Shown: positions 1 to 6,895, numbered from the stretch's first letter. The stretch is DNA of 59,972 nt from a virus (IMGVR_UViG_3300025137_000039:1-59972); one strand, 5' to 3'. Numbers and translations are program-made. Notes: generated from the letters alone by a model not told the origin.

Positions 1-2
1 AT

Positions 3-101
3 GATGTAGGAAACAATGATTACATCTATCAGGTGATTCAAGAGAGTGTGGATGAGATTACAGAAGAGAATCTAATGTCATATCAGCAGGAGTTAGTCTA
101 A
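3..101 (+). CDS. 3' part of hypothetical protein (truncated by window start)
   Basis: Frame open from the window edge (DVGNNDYIYQVIQESVDEITEENLMSYQQELV*) to TAA at 99-101, 1 nt before the next ATG. Confidence 0.6.
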   Translation, partial: DVGNNDYIYQVIQESVDEITEENLMSYQQELV

Positions 102-102
102 A

Positions 103-303
103 ATGTATCTCCCAAAAGCAGATTGGAACAGGGCAACTTACAGGGAGTTGAAAGAGATTCTAAATGAGTTGCCTGAGCGTTACTTAGATCAGACAGCAAC
201 TGTATGCACAGGGGATGATAATTACAAGGGGTTTAATATAGCATGGACTGGAGAAGCACATCCAATTCTTAATACTGATCACATGTTTTTTAATTGCTAT
301 TAA
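103..303 (+). CDS. hypothetical protein (early region)
   Basis: 66-aa ORF with AGGAG upstream, tightly packed against the previous ORF. Confidence 0.7.
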   Translation: MYLPKADWNRATYRELKEILNELPERYLDQTATVCTGDDNYKGFNIAWTGEAHPILNTDHMFFNCY

Positions 304-423
304 TGTTAGTTACCTCTAAAGTGGACCTATAGTATAAGGGTCCAGTCTTCTCACTCTCTCTTCTCTTCTTAGAATTGTTTCAGAGAGTTTGCTTCACTGA
401 CCCATCCTAATTTTCTTCTCATC

Positions 424-747
424 ATGCGTAAAATTGAATCACAAATGATTGCTGCTATTAACTCTTCAAAGAACTGGCAATCTGCTAATACAAGTGTTCA
501 CTTCAATGAAGAATCTAACATCTCTATTGTACGTCTCCATGGCAACAAGATTGCTGAAGTAACTGATGACTCCATGACAATCTTTGATGGTGGTTGGCAG
601 ACTACTACCACCAAATCTAGACTTAATGCACTTATCAATGAGTTCTGCAATGCTGTCACTGATGGTGTATTTCAAAAGAACTATCAGTGGTTTGTAACTG
701 ACAACAATGTCACCAAAGAATTCACTAATGGTTATATCTTTGCATGA
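424..747 (+). CDS. conserved cyanophage hypothetical protein
   Basis: 107-aa ORF (MRKIESQM...LHGNKIA...DGGWQTTTTKSRLNAL), a sequence type recalled from cyanomyophage early regions. Confidence 0.8.
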   Translation: MRKIESQMIAAINSSKNWQSANTSVHFNEESNISIVRLHGNKIAEVTDDSMTIFDGGWQTTTTKSRLNALINEFCNAVTDGVFQKNYQWFVTDNNVTKEFTNGYIFA

Positions 748-857
748 GTACATTATTACTCTTCCTGTTTATCATCTATGTTTGCTGGAATAGCACTAAG
801 GTGAGATCTTTCATTAGTAGAAAGTTACTTAAGTTATCCAATTTCTTTTCCCCATGA
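744..857 (+). CDS. 37-aa micro-protein with hydrophobic N-terminus
   Basis: Hand translation MSTLLLFLFIIYVCWNSTKVRSFISRKLLKLSNFFSP*; ATGA overlaps at both ends. Confidence 0.55.
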   Translation: MSTLLLFLFIIYVCWNSTKVRSFISRKLLKLSNFFSP

Positions 858-1000
858 GAATCATTCTAGTCTTCTTGTTTGTTATCCTTGGTGCTAATCT
901 CCTTATTGAACTGTTAGATAGTAATCTTACAGAAACAATCAATGAAAGAAATGAAGCATTAGAAAGATTACTCAAACCCCCTTCTTCTGTGATCCAATGA
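854..1000 (+). CDS. 48-aa micro-protein with N-terminal TM/signal segment
   Basis: MRIILVFLFVILGANLLIELLDSNLTETINERNEALERLLKPPSSVIQ*; ATGA overlaps at both ends. Confidence 0.6.
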   Translation: MRIILVFLFVILGANLLIELLDSNLTETINERNEALERLLKPPSSVIQ

Positions 1001-1137
1001 ATACCTCACTGAAAGAGGTTACGCAATTTTCTAACACAAATCCCATGATGAATGCACTCAAATTGTTGTTTCAAAGGTTGTTTGATTGTGATGATGAGGA
1101 TGTAACTGAACCAGATGAATCTACTGGGTGGAACTAA
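997..1137 (+). CDS. 46-aa acidic micro-protein
   Basis: MNTSLKEVTQFSNTNPMMNALKLLFQRLFDCDDEDVTEPDESTGWN*; ATGA overlap with the upstream ORF. Confidence 0.5.
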   Translation: MNTSLKEVTQFSNTNPMMNALKLLFQRLFDCDDEDVTEPDESTGWN

Positions 1138-1144
1138 CACCTAG

Positions 1145-1173
1145 TTGACTATGTGGGGCAAATGAGTTATACT
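1145..1173 (+). promoter_or_regulatory. sigma70-type (early) promoter
   Basis: TTGACT-17 nt-TATACT; the spacer carries one copy of the 13-bp repeat. Confidence 0.75.
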
Positions 1174-1199
1174 ATGTGGAGCACATGTATGGGTCACAT
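1151..1199. repeat. three ATGTG-N3-CACAT-like palindromic repeats over the promoter and leader
   Basis: ATGTGGGGCAAAT 1151-1163, ATGTGGAGCACAT 1174-1186, GTATGGGTCACAT 1187-1199. Confidence 0.8.
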
Positions 1200-1203
1200 A
1201 GTA

Positions 1204-1386
1204 ATGCCCTTCTCCTCTAAGTTTCCTAATCTAGGTAAGACTGTGAAGACTAGAATCCCTGAATCATGTTATCACCATGTCATCCTAATACTGGATGAAT
1301 ATGAGAGGATTGCAGAGGCAAAAGGAACCATCTTTCTAGAACAAATGCAAGGAAGATTAGAGGAAAGTCTGACTAACATAGTGTGA
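1204..1386 (+). CDS. 60-aa putative DNA-binding protein (ribbon-helix-helix-like)
   Basis: ATG 1204 lies downstream of the promoter, whereas the track's 1153 start lies inside it; GKTVKTRIPES beta-strand-like motif followed by amphipathic helices. Confidence 0.6.
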   Translation: MPFSSKFPNLGKTVKTRIPESCYHHVILILDEYERIAEAKGTIFLEQMQGRLEESLTNIV

Positions 1387-1388
1387 TC

Positions 1389-1454
1389 ATGTGGGGCACA
1401 TAGAATGCCAGTGTGGGGCACATATGTGGGGCATATAGTTTATATGGGGCACAT
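1389..1454. repeat. four 13-bp RTRTGGGGCAYAT repeats
   Basis: ATGTGGGGCACAT 1389-1401, GTGTGGGGCACAT 1411-1423, ATGTGGGGCATAT 1424-1436, ATATGGGGCACAT 1442-1454. Confidence 0.85.
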
Positions 1455-1503
1455 GAAATAAAGGTGTAAATAAATGTACCTGGGTTTTGTTATCTAAGCG
1501 TGC

Positions 1504-1532
1504 AGTCTATCACACACTCTGAGAAATGTCAA
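1504..1532 (-). promoter_or_regulatory. minus-strand sigma70-type promoter pointing into the repeat array
   Basis: Reverse complement reads TTGACA(1532-1527)-17 nt-TAGACT(1509-1504). Confidence 0.65.
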
Positions 1533-1568
1533 GACCACACAGACACTTCCCCAACTGCACATGATCCC

Positions 1569-1597
1569 TTGACAGACACACTAAAATGCCCTATATT
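1569..1597 (+). promoter_or_regulatory. sigma70-type promoter
   Basis: TTGACA-17 nt-TATATT. Confidence 0.75.
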
Positions 1598-1631
1598 GTA
1601 AGGGTAGAGAAGAGATAATCATTACACTTAC

Positions 1632-1660
1632 TAGTCCTGAGTATGACTGTAAACTGCTTA
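1632..1660 (+). ncRNA. abiF-like pseudoknot RNA motif
   Basis: TAGTCCTGAGTATGACTGTAAACTGCTTA: stem AGTC/GACT, loop GAGTA can pair with downstream TGCTT; resembles the GTCCTGAG-ATGAC-AAACTGCT pattern recalled for abiF RNA. Confidence 0.55.
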
Positions 1661-1688
1661 ACTACACACACTGAATCTCATTTTTATT

Positions 1689-1781
1689 ATGTCAAACACA
1701 CAGATCTTTGATGCACTGGAAGCAGCAGAGAATGGCAGTGATTTGTTGATGGTACTGGAGGCAATTGAGGCACTGTACTGA
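1689..1781 (+). CDS. 30-aa acidic micro-protein
   Basis: MSNTQIFDALEAAENGSDLLMVLEAIEALY*, downstream of the promoter at 1569. Confidence 0.55.
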   Translation: MSNTQIFDALEAAENGSDLLMVLEAIEALY

Positions 1782-1798
1782 TACTTAGTGAGAGTGCT

Positions 1799-1834
1799 AT
1801 GTGTTACACATGGGTTTTCTTATGTGTAACACAC
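1799..1834. repeat. two further ATGTG-N3-CACAY palindromes
   Basis: ATGTGTTACACAT 1799-1811 and ATGTGTAACACAC 1822-1834, just upstream of the 1848 promoter. Confidence 0.7.
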
Positions 1835-1847
1835 AGGTCCACAGTGG

Positions 1848-1876
1848 TTGACACATAGGGGGACATGTGGTAGACT
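1848..1876 (+). promoter_or_regulatory. sigma70-type promoter
   Basis: TTGACA-17 nt-TAGACT with TG immediately upstream (extended -10-like). Confidence 0.7.
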
Positions 1877-1882
1877 GACAGT

Positions 1883-2034
1883 GTTGTGAATATGACAGTG
1901 TTTTATGGGGGGTAAGCGTTGGGGTCTGGGGGGCGTAGCGATTAATCCCAAAAGACCCCCCCCCTGCGAAAAGACCGGTCTAGGGCAACCTACAAAAGTA
2001 TATTCCAGAGAGGTCTTTATCTGCCTCTTTTTTT
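1883..2034 (+). ncRNA. putative ~150-nt G-rich structured non-coding RNA
   Basis: Lies between the 1848 promoter and the 2009 terminator with no recognisable ORF; GGGGTCT/AGACCCC stem and AGACCGGTCT palindrome. Confidence 0.4.
2009..2034 (+). terminator. intrinsic terminator
   Basis: AGAGGT...GCCTCT stem followed by a T-run. Confidence 0.6.
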
Positions 2035-2072
2035 ATGCCCCCCATATATAATTTGTAAAAAGAAACCATTTT

Positions 2073-2276
2073 ATGAAAAAAATTTCTGCTGAAAATTTTT
2101 ACCACATATACTTGAAGGATAAATGTGTTTATAATTGTTTAAATGAAAAGAAGTTTACTGATATCTACAATACTATGCGTGAGATGGTGGAACTATTAGA
2201 TACACAGTATGATGTAGAAGACATCACTTTTGAGGTAGTAGAAACCCCATGTATAAGTGAAGAGAATAGTTATTGA
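2073..2276 (+). CDS. hypothetical protein
   Basis: 67-aa ORF on the coding strand. Confidence 0.7.
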   Translation: MKKISAENFYHIYLKDKCVYNCLNEKKFTDIYNTMREMVELLDTQYDVEDITFEVVETPCISEENSY

Positions 2277-2301
2277 CAAGTTATAGATATACTGTTAAAC
2301 T
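2273..2301 (+). promoter_or_regulatory. sigma70-type promoter
   Basis: TTGACA-17 nt-TAAACT with extended TG, 23 nt before the ATG at 2325. Confidence 0.65.
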
Positions 2302-2324
2302 GAAGTTGTAGTGAATTATCAATC

Positions 2325-3104
2325 ATGGCAAAAGGATTTACTGTAAAAGCAAAAACCCCAGTAAGGAATACAGAAGGACCTGAATGGGATATTGCTTCTA
2401 TTAAGGAGAGAATGAAAGGCAAGACAATTGTATTTTGCCTACCAGGACGTGGCGTATCATATACATTTTTAAAGAACTTTGTACAACTGTGCTTTGATAT
2501 GGTACAGAATGGGATGAGTATTCAAATCAGTCAAGATTACTCATCCATGGTAAACTTTGCACGTTGTAAGTGTTTAGGTGCTAATGTATTACGTGGACCA
2601 GATCAGATTCCATGGGATGGAAAGTTAGAGTATGATTATCAATTATGGATTGATAGTGATATTGTGTTTAGTACTGAGAAGTTCTGGCAACTATGTGATA
2701 TGGCACTAGATGCTGAAGGAAATGAGAAAAAGATTGTTTCTGGATGGTATAGTACAGAAGATGGAAAGACTACATCAGTAGCACATTGGTTAGATGAAGA
2801 TGACTTCAGAAACAATGGTGGTGTAATGAATCATGAGATGGTAGATGGTATTACAAAACGTAAGAAACCATTTACTGTAGATTACACAGGATTTGGATGG
2901 GTAATGATTCAGAAGGGTGTCTTTGAACATGAAGGACTGAAGTATCCATGGTTTGCACCTAAGATGCAAGTATTTGAATCTGGTGCAGTACAAGATATGT
3001 GTGGTGAAGATGTCTCATTCTGTTTAGATGCAATTGACGCAGGATTTGATATTTGGTGTGATCCACGTATTCGTGTTGGACATGAGAAGACTAGAGTAAT
3101 CTAA
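2325..3104 (+). CDS. GT-A fold (GT2-like) glycosyltransferase
   Basis: DxD motif in YQLWIDSDIVF, GFGWVMI, GEDVSFC, and RVGHEK near the C-terminus. Confidence 0.8.
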   Translation: MAKGFTVKAKTPVRNTEGPEWDIASIKERMKGKTIVFCLPGRGVSYTFLKNFVQLCFDMVQNGMSIQISQDYSSMVNFARCKCLGANVLRGPDQIPWDGKLEYDYQLWIDSDIVFSTEKFWQLCDMALDAEGNEKKIVSGWYSTEDGKTTSVAHWLDEDDFRNNGGVMNHEMVDGITKRKKPFTVDYTGFGWVMIQKGVFEHEGLKYPWFAPKMQVFESGAVQDMCGEDVSFCLDAIDAGFDIWCDPRIRVGHEKTRVI

Positions 3105-3205
3105 TGGGTTCAACAATCTTTGTACTTATCTTTATTATTATACTATCACTTGGTATGATAAGTATGGGTAACAAGATGTCTATTACTAGGAGAAAAGATG
3201 ATTAA
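3104..3205 (+). CDS. 33-aa membrane micro-protein
   Basis: MGSTIFVLIFIIILSLGMISMGNKMSITRRKDD*; TAATG overlap with the glycosyltransferase stop. Confidence 0.55.
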   Translation: MGSTIFVLIFIIILSLGMISMGNKMSITRRKDD

Positions 3206-3371
3206 ACAGTATCCTTATATGGTTACCTATAGACTTAGTACTACAGGTAATCAAAAACATCATAAGCGACTTACTGCAGGATGTGCTATAGATGCAGAGA
3301 AGTTATTTGAGGAATCAATGCCTTCTGCATCTATTGTATGTACATATGCATTACCACAAAATAGAGTATAG
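3198..3371 (+). CDS. 57-aa hypothetical protein
   Basis: MIKQYPYMVTYRLSTTGNQKHHKRLTAGCAIDAEKLFEESMPSASIVCTYALPQNRV*; AGGAG Shine-Dalgarno upstream. Confidence 0.6.
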   Translation: MIKQYPYMVTYRLSTTGNQKHHKRLTAGCAIDAEKLFEESMPSASIVCTYALPQNRV

Positions 3372-3379
3372 GATTTATT

Positions 3380-3526
3380 ATGGCAAAAGTTAAAAAGAGT
3401 TTGATGGGTGGCGACTTTATTGAAGCACAACCCAAGAAAACTAGTCAGGGTGCAGGGAAACACACAAAGTATTCTGCCAGTAGTGGTAACAATGCAAAGA
3501 AAAGATACAGAGGACAAGGAAGATAA
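3380..3526 (+). CDS. 48-aa small basic protein (conserved cyanophage type)
   Basis: MAKVKKSLMGGDFIEAQPKKTSQGAGKHTKYSASSGNNAKKRYRGQGR*; the KKRYRGQG ending is recalled as typical of T4-like phage small basic proteins. Confidence 0.75.
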   Translation: MAKVKKSLMGGDFIEAQPKKTSQGAGKHTKYSASSGNNAKKRYRGQGR

Positions 3527-3622
3527 GATTGAAGAATCAAAGATTCTTTGTCAACACTGTAAAAGAACTGCAACAAATAACATCAGATGCTTAGGTATGT
3601 GTGTTGCAGATTCTGATTATTA

Positions 3623-3650
3623 GGAGGGGTATTACACCTCTCCTTTTTTT
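3623..3650 (+). terminator. intrinsic terminator
   Basis: GGAGGGGT-ATTAC-ACCTCTCC followed by T7. Confidence 0.8.
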
Positions 3651-3688
3651 ATGCTAGATAAAACAGCGCGAAAAACCTCTTTTTCTCT

Positions 3689-4357
3689 ATGGCTTGTTTG
3701 ATTTGTAATTTACCTAACGTAGAAGTATATGTAAGGAAAGAATATCTCACTGATCACCAAAGTGGTCATGGTGAGTATGTAAAAGGATGGTGGGTATCAT
3801 GTAAGAGTATTCCTGGTAGAGCATTTTACTTTGAAACCTATCTTCCAGAATATGCTGCAATGTATGATAAGTTACCCATAAGTGCCTTTGTAAGTGAACC
3901 AAAAAAACCAACCCCTGATATGGATCTGTATAATCTACAGTTTTGGAACTGTATGGACTATGGGGTTGTAGCAACACAGAAACAGTTTATTGGATCTATG
4001 GACTATGAGGTCTTTACAAGGGACCATGGGACTGTTAAAGGCACTTACGTCTGTACTATAGACAACTACCACCAAGACATTGATACAGTTGATTACAGCA
4101 CCTCTGAGATACCATCTGAACATAAGTCACATAATCTAATAGAATTAAATAATGGACAGTATTGTTTGTATCCTAATAACAGGACTAGAATCTTTGATAA
4201 TAGTTTAACACCAGAGAATCCAAAGATGCCTGACTTTAAAGTTTCTACTGAGTTTTATCAGGTAGAAAATGGTCATGATAGGATGGGTCTTGGTGACCAG
4301 GATTCATATTTTTGGAAGACTGCACAGGACAAAAATAAATCAATAAAAGAAAATTAA
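3689..4357 (+). CDS. conserved phage hypothetical protein
   Basis: 222-aa ORF (YVRKEYL...KSIPGRA...YDKLPISAF...QFWNC...EHKSHN...YPNNR), a family recalled from marine phages upstream of gp25. Confidence 0.85.
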   Translation: MACLICNLPNVEVYVRKEYLTDHQSGHGEYVKGWWVSCKSIPGRAFYFETYLPEYAAMYDKLPISAFVSEPKKPTPDMDLYNLQFWNCMDYGVVATQKQFIGSMDYEVFTRDHGTVKGTYVCTIDNYHQDIDTVDYSTSEIPSEHKSHNLIELNNGQYCLYPNNRTRIFDNSLTPENPKMPDFKVSTEFYQVENGHDRMGLGDQDSYFWKTAQDKNKSIKEN

Positions 4358-4366
4358 GATTAGGAC

Positions 4367-4374
4367 TATAAATA
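4367..4374 (+). promoter_or_regulatory. T4-type late promoter
   Basis: Exact TATAAATA upstream of gp25. Confidence 0.8.
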
Positions 4375-4396
4375 AGGACATATCCTGCGTTTAATC

Positions 4397-4798
4397 ATGC
4401 CCACTCAGAGGATAAGTAAACCATTTAAAGATGTAAGTGCTACTTTTCAAATCAATCCTTTGAATAGTGATTTGATTGGATTAAAGAATGCTAATGCAAT
4501 CTCAAGATCCATTCGTAATTTAATATTAACAATAAGAGGGGAAAAACCATTTGATTTATCACTTGGTTCTAATGTGAATAATTTGTTATTTGAAAATCTA
4601 GATTTTATTACAGCATCTAGTATTAAATCTGAAATTGAAAATACCATCAAAAATTATGAACCAAGAGTCAAATTAAATGATGTATTTGTTAAAGCAAATA
4701 CAGACAGAAATGCATTTGATGTTCAGATTACATATGACATCATTGGTATTGAAGCAGACGCACAAGATCTATCATTCTCTTTAGAGCTCACTAGGTAA
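4397..4798 (+). CDS. gp25: baseplate wedge subunit gp25
   Basis: SIRNLILT-GEKPF...LGS...LFEN...I.NYEPRV motifs of the GPW/gp25 family; synteny with gp6. Confidence 0.92.
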   Translation: MPTQRISKPFKDVSATFQINPLNSDLIGLKNANAISRSIRNLILTIRGEKPFDLSLGSNVNNLLFENLDFITASSIKSEIENTIKNYEPRVKLNDVFVKANTDRNAFDVQITYDIIGIEADAQDLSFSLELTR

Positions 4799-6895
4799 AT
4801 GCCTTTAGTTAATTTTACAAATCTAGATTTTAATCAGATAAAAGATTCCTTAAGGGATTATCTTCGTGCGAATTCAAACTTTACTGATTATGATTATGAA
4901 GGTTCTAATTTATCAACAATCATTGATATCTTAGCATATAATACTTATTTGAATTCATATAATGCAAATATGGTTTCAAATGAAGTTTTTATTGATAGTG
5001 CTACATTAAGAGAAAATGTAGTTTCACTTGCTAGAAACATTGGTTATGTTCCAAGACCTAGAGGTGCAGCAAAAGCAAATGTTTCCTTTGCTGTTGACAT
5101 GACAGGTACTACTACAGTATCAGTTACACTTAAAGCAGGTATTGTAGCAGTAACATCAAATTCATTTTCTGGACAAGGTTTTACATTCTCTATACCAAAA
5201 GATATAACTGTTGCAGTTAATGCTAATAAACTAGCAATATTTGATTCAATTGTAATATATGAAGGAACATACATTACTCAAAGTTTTAATGTAAGTTCTA
5301 GAGTACCAAATCAAAAGTATATTTTAACTAATGCTGGTATTGATAGCAATCTAATTGAAGTAAATGTACGTGATTCATCACAATCAAATATTTCAAGAAA
5401 CTTTACGCAGTCAGATAGTTTATTTGACTTAGATGGATCATCACCAGTTTACTTTATACAGGAAGTAGATAATGAAAGATATGAATTATTATTTGGCGAT
5501 GGTATATTTGGATTACCAGTATCTGAACCAAATGTGATAGAAGCAAGTTATATTGTTTCAAACGGAAGTGATGCTAATAATATTTCTCAGATGAATTTTG
5601 CTGGTCAATTAGTAAGCAATAATAATGCTGCAATCACAGCAAATATAACATCATTGACTGTAGATCAATCATCTTATGGTGGTTCTGAAATTGAAAGTGT
5701 GGAATCAATTAAAAAATATGGAACTCAAATTTATGCATCACAAAATCGTGCAGTAACTGCAGTTGATTATGAAGCAATGATTCCTAAAATTTATCATGAA
5801 ACAGAATCAGTTTCTGCATTTGGTGGAGAAGATCTTACACCACCTCAATTTGGTAAAGTTTTCATAAGTGTTAAACCAATCAATGGTGTGTTCCTTTCAA
5901 CTGCAATAAAAACTGACATTGCAAGAGAATTAAAAAAATACTCTGTTGCAGGAATCATACCAGAAATTGTTGATTTAAAATATTTGTTTGTTGAAACTGA
6001 TTCATATGTTTACTATAATGAAAATAAAGCTCCTAATTCAGAAGTAATATTGGGTCTAACAAGAAATAATATTGTTAGATATTCTGATTCAACTGAACTT
6101 AATAAGTTTGGTGCCAGATTTAAATACAGTAAATATCAAAAAATAATTGATAATACACATATTGCTATTACATCTAACATAACAACTGTTCAGATGCGTA
6201 GAGATCTTGAACCACTGTTGAATACATTTGCTGAATATGAAATTTGTTTTGGTAATAGATTTCATGTAAAAAATCATGGTCATAGTCCTGTATCAAACGG
6301 AACTGTAATTGGATACAATATAAAATCATCTGGTTTTAAAGTATCTGGAATTACCAATACTTTATACCTTGGAGACAAACCAAATACTGGACTGAAGACA
6401 GGAACTATCTTTATGTTTAAATTAAATTCACCAACAAATCCTGTTATTGTAAAACAAAATATTGGAACTATTGATTACATTAAAGGAGAGATAATGCTTT
6501 CCCCAATAAAGATAATTTCTACTGAGGTAAATAGAGGTGAACCACTCATTGAAATATCTGCAAATCCCTTCTCTAATGATGTAATTGGTAAGCAAGATCT
6601 TTATCTTCAACTTGATACAAACAATGTGACACTTAGTACTGTTACTGATGAAATTGAATCTGGTGATGATATTTCTGGTAGTAATTATGTTGTAACATCA
6701 TCTTATGGATATGGCACTCTTGTAAGAGGCACACCAGTTCTTACTACAGAACAATCAGATAATGTATCTCTTACTGGTTTAATCACTGGTGCTGACAATG
6801 CTACTACTGAAGTAGCAGCAGGTACAAATATTACAACATATACAGTTACAACTGGTATGAATGGTTCCACTTCTTCTAATACAAATTCCTACTAA
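4799..6895 (+). CDS. gp6: baseplate wedge subunit gp6
   Basis: LDFNQIK...FTDYDYEGSNLS...DSATLRENVVSLARNIGYVP, FGDG, QNRAVTAVDY. Confidence 0.95.
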   Translation: MPLVNFTNLDFNQIKDSLRDYLRANSNFTDYDYEGSNLSTIIDILAYNTYLNSYNANMVSNEVFIDSATLRENVVSLARNIGYVPRPRGAAKANVSFAVDMTGTTTVSVTLKAGIVAVTSNSFSGQGFTFSIPKDITVAVNANKLAIFDSIVIYEGTYITQSFNVSSRVPNQKYILTNAGIDSNLIEVNVRDSSQSNISRNFTQSDSLFDLDGSSPVYFIQEVDNERYELLFGDGIFGLPVSEPNVIEASYIVSNGSDANNISQMNFAGQLVSNNNAAITANITSLTVDQSSYGGSEIESVESIKKYGTQIYASQNRAVTAVDYEAMIPKIYHETESVSAFGGEDLTPPQFGKVFISVKPINGVFLSTAIKTDIARELKKYSVAGIIPEIVDLKYLFVETDSYVYYNENKAPNSEVILGLTRNNIVRYSDSTELNKFGARFKYSKYQKIIDNTHIAITSNITTVQMRRDLEPLLNTFAEYEICFGNRFHVKNHGHSPVSNGTVIGYNIKSSGFKVSGITNTLYLGDKPNTGLKTGTIFMFKLNSPTNPVIVKQNIGTIDYIKGEIMLSPIKIISTEVNRGEPLIEISANPFSNDVIGKQDLYLQLDTNNVTLSTVTDEIESGDDISGSNYVVTSSYGYGTLVRGTPVLTTEQSDNVSLTGLITGADNATTEVAAGTNITTYTVTTGMNGSTSSNTNSY

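Follow-up and report, generated by a model that had tools for sequence, protein, structure and literature searches.

Comparative analysis shows that positions 1633-1660 of a cyanophage genome fragment form one copy of a widespread family of phage H-type pseudoknots, 28-30 nt in length, in which both stems covary and the loop nucleotides are nearly invariant. The window, meaning the whole stretch of DNA that was analyzed, is a 59,972-nt IMG/VR record (IMGVR_UViG_3300025137_000039) that is estimated to be ~30% complete and whose relatives are T4-like cyanomyoviruses of Synechococcus and Prochlorococcus. We propose, at a probability of roughly 40%, that the element acts in cis on mRNA as a barrier or insulator that separates the fates of neighboring message segments. 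The original prediction for this locus had described a pseudoknot behind an early promoter and had interpreted it as an orphan, abiF-like mimic of an antitoxin RNA or, as a fallback, as a cis-acting regulator of the 30-codon open reading frame (ORF) that begins at 1689. The pseudoknot and the promoter were borne out and the fallback fits the data, but the resemblance to abiF and the type III antitoxin nature were not supported.

The 29-mer on which the prediction was based is present at 1632-1660, and the pairings proposed for it, comprising both stems and two G-U pairs, exist. Stem 1 is formed by 1633-1636 with 1645-1648 and stem 2 by 1638-1643 with 1655-1660; the core of stem 2 (1639-1643 with 1655-1659) includes the two G-U pairs, and U1638-A1660 extends it by an additional sixth pair. 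Loop 1 is a single nucleotide, C1637, the junction nucleotide is U1644, and loop 3 consists of 1649-1654 (GUAAAC). On the sequence of the window by itself, this fold is at chance level, and it exceeds chance only through comparison. Pseudoknots of the same geometry occur 111 times on the two strands of the window, compared with 96.7 +/- 9.5 in 20 shuffles, and the nested minimum free energy fold of 1598-1700 is not better than that of shuffled sequences (z = +1.18). When the conserved loop signature described below is added to the geometry, 1633 is the sole site in the window, and a covariance model built from other phages scores it at 40.8 bits (E = 5e-10), with the runner-up site in the window at 13.2 bits.

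To obtain homologues, we fetched 80 IMG/VR loci around relatives of a neighboring 259-aa protein; an nhmmer search with 1560-1800 yielded 17 related stretches at E < 0.05 among the loci fetched, in which the conserved block starts exactly at the motif and extends through the small ORF. Among 13 homologues chosen by sequence alone, 93.1% of cells were paired and seven of the ten pairs had changed on both sides, whereas none of 500 shuffles paired as well and controls with slid positions reached 22-47%. A sequence-only model gave 27 hits in 81 sources, every one of them on the gene strand. Three pattern scans of IMG/VR then each tested one part of the fold with the others held fixed; here and below, counts over 121, 126, 132, 140, 149 or 252 copies refer to sub-samples among the matches listed, and the patterns that retrieved them fix parts of the motif. 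With stem 1 and the loops fixed, stem 2 formed all six pairs in 63 and five of six in 30 of 121 matches, where the calculated chance rates are ~0.3% and ~3%, respectively. When stem 2 was held constant instead, 112 of 140 matches had four of four stem 1 pairs and 27 had three of four, and the stem took more than 50 sequence forms. In the third scan, which constrained both stems but not the loops, loop 1 was C in 126/126 matches and loop 3, 5-8 nt long, had AAAC at its end in 124/126; the two base pairs on either side of the junction were also invariant, while the junction nucleotide itself varied (T 96, A 21, C 9). Loop 3 length variants include a frequent 8-nt form, ACTAAAAC, in 47 of these 126 stem-fixed copies (IMG/VR loci L478-L602), and a 9-nt form in Arthrobacter phage Molivia. 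In an alignment of 149 sequences, 95% of cells are paired, a value that is descriptive only, as the rows were selected for pairing; the sixth stem 2 pair is a standard one in 99 of the 149 (86 U-A and 13 U-G). The family architecture is thus a stem 1 of 4 bp, a one-nucleotide loop 1 (C), a stem 2 of 5-6 bp and one variable junction nucleotide, and no conservation was seen outside the 28 nt except for a depletion of G over the next 8 nt downstream. The covariation check on homologues therefore sustains the predicted fold: both stems covary, and an H-type pseudoknot with exactly the two proposed stems is a conserved structure at the RNA level.

In a table of stem 2 pairs from 132 listed copies, ~76 cells were G-U and only 8 were A-C, indicating that the sense strand is the folding strand. 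These data, together with the positions described below, show that the element folds on the sense strand, is self-contained and lies in untranslated gaps of phage transcripts. They also bear on whether the element functions as DNA, either by bounding mobile cassettes of small genes or serving in their recombination, or as a single-stranded-DNA structure. Copies do lie between small genes in variable regions, pseudoknot and small ORF move as a unit behind unrelated upstream genes, and gene shuffling in T4-type phages has been attributed to regulatory cassettes that occur repeatedly. Covarying interleaved stems in which G-T is tolerated and A-C avoided are, however, a signature of RNA pairing, the orientation strictly follows the gene strand, and 4-bp stems would be unstable as DNA, making a DNA-level role very improbable. 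The possibility that the TAAACT box is part of a sigma-70 promoter was rejected because there is no conserved -35 box or other conservation upstream and because the stems covary.

A model, R2, that was built from 149 copies confirmed the element at 21.9-39.9 bits in eight named phages that infect cyanobacteria, proteobacteria, actinobacteria and firmicutes: Synechococcus phage S-H35, Roseobacter phage SIO1, Escherichia phage phiEcoM-GJ1, Moraxella phage Mcat1, Arthrobacter phage Molivia, Streptococcus phage Javan407, Latilactobacillus phage TMW 1.2272 P1 and Geobacillus phage GR1. The number of copies per genome ranges from zero to nine. Syn9 has none; S-H35, SIO1, Molivia and phiEcoM-GJ1 have one strong copy each; and five IMG/VR contigs carry 1-9 copies at E <= 0.1, which are clustered and co-oriented with small genes. 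In contigs from bacterial and archaeal genomes, the first pattern had 122 matches, of which 57 have five or six stem 2 pairs and the rest look like chance; labels on the matching contigs include Saccharibacteria, Bacillota, Bacteroidota, Helicobacter and Acinetobacter. Within its own record the element has no second copy by repeat search, and the covariance model finds a single copy. The exact 29-mer had no match in IMG/VR, and a blastn search of 1100-2400 against named phages gave short matches only, none of them at the element.

In annotated phages, the element is on the gene strand in unannotated gaps, the exception being phiEcoM-GJ1, in which it falls inside an annotated hypothetical coding sequence. 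It follows the ribonucleotide reductase gene in SIO1 and the holin gene in GR1, and follows the SSB gene and abuts tRNA-Gly in Molivia; in Javan407 and the Latilactobacillus phage, the scaffold and major-capsid genes come directly after it. Of 132 de-duplicated copies, 121 have a same-strand ORF that ends upstream, and the gap between the stop codon and stem 1 in these 121 has a sharp lower edge: 4 copies have 2-4 nt and 21 have 5 nt, followed by 9 copies with 6 nt, 10 with 7 nt and 4 with 8 nt, such that the most frequent start of the element is 5 nt past the stop codon. The gap is 2-16 nt in 75 of the 121, the stop codon ahead of the element being TAA in 55, TAG in 10 and TGA in 10, and the next start codon is 14-50 nt downstream in 58 of 97 copies. 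Across 252 de-duplicated copies, 181 have a same-strand ORF end no more than 40 nt upstream and 133 an ORF start no more than 80 nt downstream; 70 have no same-strand ORF ending upstream, 77 are followed by at least 80 nt without a same-strand ORF, and 24 face a convergent ORF. A tRNA gene lies 2-13 nt downstream in 18 of the 252, and a tRNA precedes only one. No copies were found at junctions where stop and start codons overlap. The flanking genes are diverse, with DUF932 (phrog_1221; 12 of 150), Hsp20 (6), SSB, ribonucleotide reductase, capsid and terminase genes among those upstream, and nucleases, kinases, portal, scaffold, primase and PhoH among those downstream. At the 8 positions past the pseudoknot, G accounts for only 6-13% in the 252 copies, and the 60 nt downstream fold most weakly of the flanks (mean -7.9 kcal/mol, compared with -11.1 kcal/mol for the 60 nt upstream). 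Terminator-like sites occur within 60 nt downstream in 5 of 252 copies and 121-220 nt downstream in 24; given the former count, we rejected an attenuator or a riboswitch acting through a terminator.

Several individual loci are of interest with respect to these neighborhoods. In L473 (G001:81500-89000) and L472 (G003:2500-9000), a gene for a DUF932 protein (PF06067, E = 7e-48) is followed 6-8 nt past its stop codon by the pseudoknot and then, a few nucleotides on, by an apparent tRNA start, judged by eye. Ten of the 18 tRNAs that follow the element are Asp or Asn, but a link with queuosine was discarded, as several copies share the DUF932-knot-tRNA order; we suspect that this synteny explains the Asp/Asn excess. 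In L116, a pseudoknot copy and two tRNA genes share their strand, within ~430 nt, with a twister-P1-like match (L116:5-56, - strand; 50 bits, under the gathering score of 67.2; E = 7e-9). In L139, a GP20-b RNA match (332-389; 32.9 bits relative to a gathering score of 36.2) starts 4 nt past a pseudoknot copy and is upstream of a head scaffolding gene. Finally, in L471 (G002:54000-62224), similar G-poor leaders connect each of the six listed copies to a start codon; in four of the six this leader reads CTACTCAACTCAAC...TTGTT, and the same leader is also found without a pseudoknot. The junctions of this contig at which stop and start codons overlap carry no copy.

A pseudoknot located directly behind a stop codon might be expected to be a recoding signal, one that promotes frameshifting or read-through of the stop codon where the upstream gene ends. 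Frameshift and read-through pseudoknots use a spacing of 5-8 nt, which 44 of the 121 copies have (47 of 121 at 5-9 nt behind the codon, the copy in the window not being one of them), and the architecture resembles that of the compact luteovirus type. In 75 loci, however, the three frames close quickly past the stop codon, after medians of 9, 5 and 6 codons. No frame stays open, and therefore the element is not a recoding signal. Moreover, no upstream ORF ends near the element in the window, 70 of 252 copies have no upstream same-strand ORF end at all, and in 18 a tRNA comes next. Recoding is thus largely refuted, and we give it next to no credence.

In the window, the element is the second component of a conserved five-part cassette built around a small ORF:

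1569..1597, + strand: sigma-70-type promoter, TTGACA-17-TATATT, with a predicted transcript start at ~1604
1633..1660, + strand: H-type pseudoknot of 28 nt, recognized by covariation, invariant loop nucleotides and a covariance-model score of 40.8 bits
1661..1688, + strand: G-poor leader with little structure (1 G in 28 nt)
1689..1781, + strand: 30-codon ORF, a short member of a conserved cyanophage small-protein family
1797..1823, + strand: terminator-like hairpin (1797-1813) with a 7-bp stem, then the T-rich run GTTTTCTTAT (repeats D7 and I5)

The promoter is as originally described, with TTGACA at 1569-1574, a 17-nt spacer and TATATT at 1592-1597, and the motif begins 35 nt past the -10 box. 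With matches at 11 of 12 positions it is the top promoter-like site in 1-5000, a region whose 24 promoter-like sites are no excess over shuffled sequences (22.1 +/- 4.6); it is identical in the related locus L012 and retained as TTTACA-17-TATAAT in L008. The pseudoknot would lie ~29 nt into the transcript predicted from this promoter, 28 nt ahead of the 30-codon gene. Contigs from RNA libraries of two different studies match this region with zero differences, X7 at 1602-1755 and X3 at 1614-1797. Their starts (1602 and 1614) are near the predicted transcript start and the end of X3 (1797) is at the terminator, which is only a weak hint at those two boundaries, since the ends of an RNA cannot be read from contigs and carried-over DNA may be their source. 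Two metatranscriptome contigs from relatives, X2 and X4, stop inside or beside the element, and we drew no conclusion from them.

The 30-codon ORF belongs to a real gene family whose members have an N-terminal helix, a G-N-x-G turn and a second helix, the longer ones ending in an acidic tail and EF; L10, G16 and L20 are invariant in 15 aligned homologues, and neither Pfam nor PHROG gave a match for the family. A homologue of this ORF follows the pseudoknot at a distance of 18-35 nt in 14 of the 18 cyanophage loci examined, in agreement with the fallback idea of a cis role for the ORF at 1689, and the two travel as a unit behind unrelated upstream genes. In four loci (L018:65-109, L040:186-224, L033:23-60 and L042:2280-2314), a different conserved leader, which may be structured, takes the place of the pseudoknot before the same small-ORF family, except that L042 carries both this leader and the pseudoknot. 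Small ORFs and promoter-like sites surround the cassette, a glycosyltransferase-like gene (2325-3104) and baseplate genes lie downstream of it, and genes near the element match Kyanoviridae families (for example Gp96/phrog_554 at 424-747).

We favor the cis-acting barrier or insulator because the unstructured G-poor tail, the ORF-knot-tRNA order, the sites ahead of capsid operons and the 5' leaders all fit it. The ribosome's entry channel behind the A site holds 5 nt of mRNA, and the stop-to-knot spacing sets in sharply at this same length, suggesting that the element is packed as tightly as folding beside a terminating ribosome permits. According to this model, a compact knot, probably stabilized by a triplex, would mark a cistron boundary in cis. 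Placed as near the upstream stop codon as the terminating ribosome allows, it would stay folded while the upstream gene is translated, block exonucleases or ribonuclease scanning between neighboring message segments, and keep the G-poor leader that follows from pairing with upstream RNA. It would thereby set the stability and ribosome access of the flanking cistron, which in the window is a small early gene, and where a tRNA lies downstream, its processing by RNase P would give the upstream message a 3' end at the knot. The element is also autonomous, in that nothing is conserved beyond the 28 nt and the flanking genes are diverse.

Self-contained structures at cistron boundaries have precedents. 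Intercistronic stabilizers, such as the RNase III sites of T7, REP hairpins and 5' stabilizers, give neighboring message segments different stability, and the arrangement of the MALAT1 triple helix with its tRNA-like cleavage site is mirrored by the ORF-knot-tRNA order. Those structures are, however, hairpins or much larger, and lineage-specific, whereas the element described here is tiny, has invariant loops and crosses phyla.

Several observations weigh against the barrier or insulator. Its loops (C in 126/126 and AAAC in 124/126 copies listed) are conserved more strictly than a mere roadblock seems to need, and this suggests either a specific partner or a tertiary fold with exacting demands; a GC-rich hairpin would block nucleases equally well. 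Both stems are short and rich in A and U. Many genomes have no copy or only one, so it is not a general punctuation mark. In the window no ORF ends upstream, and thus 3'-end protection cannot apply here, only the 5'-leader or insulator version. The RNA-library contigs are no proof of transcription, since DNA carry-over is possible, and the positional counts come from pattern-selected sub-samples.

The strict loop conservation makes an RNA that binds a specific partner a serious rival to the insulator. The element would then be a recognition module, be it a minimal aptamer for a small molecule, an operator bound by a conserved protein or a small ribozyme's core, in which the invariant junction and loop nucleotides would make the contacts. 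The invariance of the loop 1 C, of the AAAC end of loop 3 and of the base pairs flanking the junction all speak for such a module, as does its sporadic occurrence at zero to nine copies per genome, which is like that of ribozymes and riboswitches; one copy, moreover, is in a tRNA cluster beside the twister-like hit. A pseudoknot, several nucleotides conserved at >=97% and occurrence in several phyla have been named, in PMC5737381, as marks of a "biochemically sophisticated" RNA, and the element, with hosts in several phyla, has these marks. Still, it shows no expression platform (a terminator-like site follows within 60 nt in only 5/252 copies), and neither a ribosome-binding site nor a start codon lies within the fold. 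No consistent gene association points to a ligand, the junction nucleotide is variable (T 96, A 21, C 9), and no Rfam riboswitch or ribozyme model touches the element. At 28 nt it would also be below the size of any natural aptamer or self-cleaving ribozyme known to us. On balance, we rate a recognition module as possible but doubtful, and slightly more doubtful still the specific version in which the element is an exceptionally small sophisticated RNA whose invariant C and AAAC form a pocket, a surface or a catalytic core. If that version were true, the universal partner could be a metabolite, a signaling nucleotide, the ribosome, RNA polymerase or RNase P, and with a pocket or catalytic core the element would be smaller than any known natural aptamer or ribozyme.

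RNA polymerase could also be the target in another way, if the element acted in cis on the transcribing enzyme like the put RNAs of HK022 and promoted read-through of terminators, tRNA arrays and long untranslated gaps. Sites for put lie either near a transcript start or behind a stop codon; the element, too, occupies sites beyond the reach of ribosomes, ~30 nt past the predicted transcript start in the window or directly behind a stop codon. It precedes tRNA genes far more often than it follows them (18 versus 1 among the copies listed), is followed by at least 80 nt without a same-strand ORF in 77/252 copies, and in the window has a terminator-like hairpin downstream at 1797. Conservation of RNA polymerase across phyla would also fit the invariant loops. 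Nevertheless, 28 nt is far smaller than put RNAs, and for most copies no terminator was found within 220 nt downstream. In addition, phiEcoM-GJ1 has annotated "putative phage promoters" near its copy and its own RNA polymerase. We therefore regard put-like action as improbable.

The reading with which the original prediction began is that of a decoy: by imitating the RNA antitoxin that restrains a host AbiF/HEPN or type III nuclease, the element would neutralize that nuclease early in infection. It drew on a pseudoknot RNA under an early-type promoter, and the clustering of copies among small early or accessory genes is compatible with it. Type III antitoxin RNAs are pseudoknots, and phages can carry look-alikes of them. 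The abiF-motif RNA RCd22 of Clostridioides difficile neutralizes AbiF; its motifs are described as hairpins of 33 and 35 nt, present twice in RCd22 upstream of abiF, that bind AbiF (10.1101/2025.04.15.648962).

The supposed resemblance to abiF did not withstand comparison with Rfam. The abiF model (RF03085; 37 positions, gathering score 37 bits) has no match at E <= 10 in the whole 59,972-nt record. A scan of the window with Rfam 15 at gathering scores gave no matches, and all 4227 families at E <= 10 over 1350-2100 gave four weak hits, none of them abiF; the only one crossing 1600-1690 is antisense SCARNA7, a chance match at 11.1 bits. In 20 element-carrying loci, Rfam at E <= 5 placed nothing on the element and gave no abiF hit. 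The element resembles the abiF RNA motif in being a short structured RNA (~33-37 nt in abiF) linked to phages or prophages. However, the element is a true pseudoknot, is present as a single copy in the window and is found behind any kind of gene, whereas the abiF hairpin pair precedes an Abi_2/AbiF toxin gene.

The type III antitoxin nature fared no better. ToxI, AntiQ, CptI and TenpI are pseudoknot RNAs of ~34-45 nt that form tandem arrays cut by the adjacent toxin. By contrast, copies of the element lie hundreds of nucleotides apart between genes, and 1600-1700 has no tandem repeat and the only copy in the window. Abi_2 (PF07751) has no match at E <= 1 in the record, which covers an estimated ~30% of the genome, and ToxN (PF13958) has none in the record either, the CptN and TenpN families being outside this search. 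Among bacterial-genome matches scanned against PHROGs, no toxin-family neighbor was found. Nor does an orphan antitoxin mimic account for the fixed spacing of 5 nt from stop codons that recurs in phages whose hosts span many phyla, and since the same loop nucleotides recur from cyanobacterial to actinobacterial phages, a decoy would need a single toxin conserved in all of them. A decoy role thus lacks support but has not been disproved; we consider it highly unlikely, and the antitoxin-mimic reading can be dropped.

With respect to structure, the closest counterparts of the element are compact H-type pseudoknots with a one-nucleotide loop 1, a group that includes the T-even gene 32 leader, luteovirus frameshift signals and preQ1-I aptamers, and which the element resembles in structure and working. 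It shares with the gene 32 leader pseudoknot of T2, T4 and T6 a compact H-type fold in a phage mRNA leader, two interleaved helices (each with covariation in the element) and a single-nucleotide loop 1 that crosses a stem 2 of 6-7 bp, with stem 1 spanned by a longer loop rich in A; both lie tens of nucleotides ahead of a start codon, with an unstructured leader in between. The gene 32 pseudoknot nevertheless differs in sequence and serves one gene, for a single-strand-binding protein, with one protein partner, whereas the family described here borders many kinds of genes and extends far outside T4-like phages.

The preQ1-I riboswitch (RF00522) is likewise an H-type pseudoknot of ~30 nt; its third loop is rich in A, and conserved nucleotides surround the junction of its helices. 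The loop in which preQ1-I has its ligand-reading C, however, corresponds to one variable nucleotide in the element, and stem 2 of the element contains no ribosome-binding site. There was no preQ1-I match at E <= 10 in 1350-2100 of the window or at E <= 5 in the 20 element loci, and no queuosine genes were among the neighbors examined. Luteovirus frameshift and retroviral read-through pseudoknots are also ~28 nt in length, with one junction nucleotide, a loop 1 C and an A-rich loop 3, and sit 5-8 nt behind the A-site codon, but the element has neither a slippery site nor an extended frame and is also found in leaders and before tRNAs. Of the classes tested, therefore, the element belongs neither to the abiF motif, nor to the type III antitoxins, nor to preQ1-I, and the absence of an open frame separates it from recoding signals.

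Other features surround the cassette in the window. A 13-nt near-palindrome, ATGTGGGGCACAT, occurs six times on the + strand with at most one mismatch (at 1151, 1174, 1389, 1411, 1424 and 1442), all inside the 300-nt span 1151-1454. The copies flank a 77-codon ORF (1153-1386) and overlap a promoter-like site (1145-1173), and related palindromes are present at 1797-1811 and 1822-1836, the region noted extending to 2033-2047. The array looks like a set of putative operator sites for a DNA-binding protein. Between this array and the cassette, 1471-1536 has matches in 15 of 80 related loci, more than any other non-coding block in the region; its + strand carries a hairpin and T-run, and its - strand a promoter-like site at 1532-1504. 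Downstream of the cassette, a promoter-like site (1848-1876; TTGACA-17-TAGACT with an upstream TG) is followed by a stretch rich in G-runs and C-runs and by a terminator-like hairpin at 2007-2030. This stretch (1848-2036) has no convincing gene and could encode a small RNA of ~150 nt; L012 and L008 share it as a conserved region, and six further loci share part of it; the fold of the candidate RNA (1883-2038) is not significant (z = -1.38), and its Rfam hits are weak and sub-threshold only. Farther downstream, a 222-aa ORF (3689-4357) matches phrog_3704, "ferredoxin" (E = 1e-113). The homologous stretch in P-SSM2 and S-SM2 is labelled purM or ferredoxin in public records, an inconsistent annotation.

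Our searches suggest that the family was previously uncatalogued. The element is in none of the 4227 families of Rfam 15, and six 16-mers of the motif had no match in the literature. In the titles and passages retrieved on cyanophage pseudoknots, and with broader RNA terms, no published account was found. Motif strings are absent from six supplement files of PMC10690425; this catalogue lists over 10,000 candidate viral RNAs and could include the element without a name, because three further supplement files were outside the search. According to the same paper, the gene 32 leader pseudoknot has no Rfam model.

If it is indeed uncatalogued, the element would be among the smallest strongly conserved RNA folds known, and one that has gone unnoticed. 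Besides the phages of the four host groups named above, contigs binned with many other phyla share it. Its size of 28 nt suits structure probing, compensatory mutants and reporters, and should the insulator or stabilizer function be true, the element would be useful as a portable part. More broadly, the stereotyped position and invariant loops of this pseudoknot could reveal a general means by which phages partition polycistronic messages, or a new interaction between an RNA and its partner.

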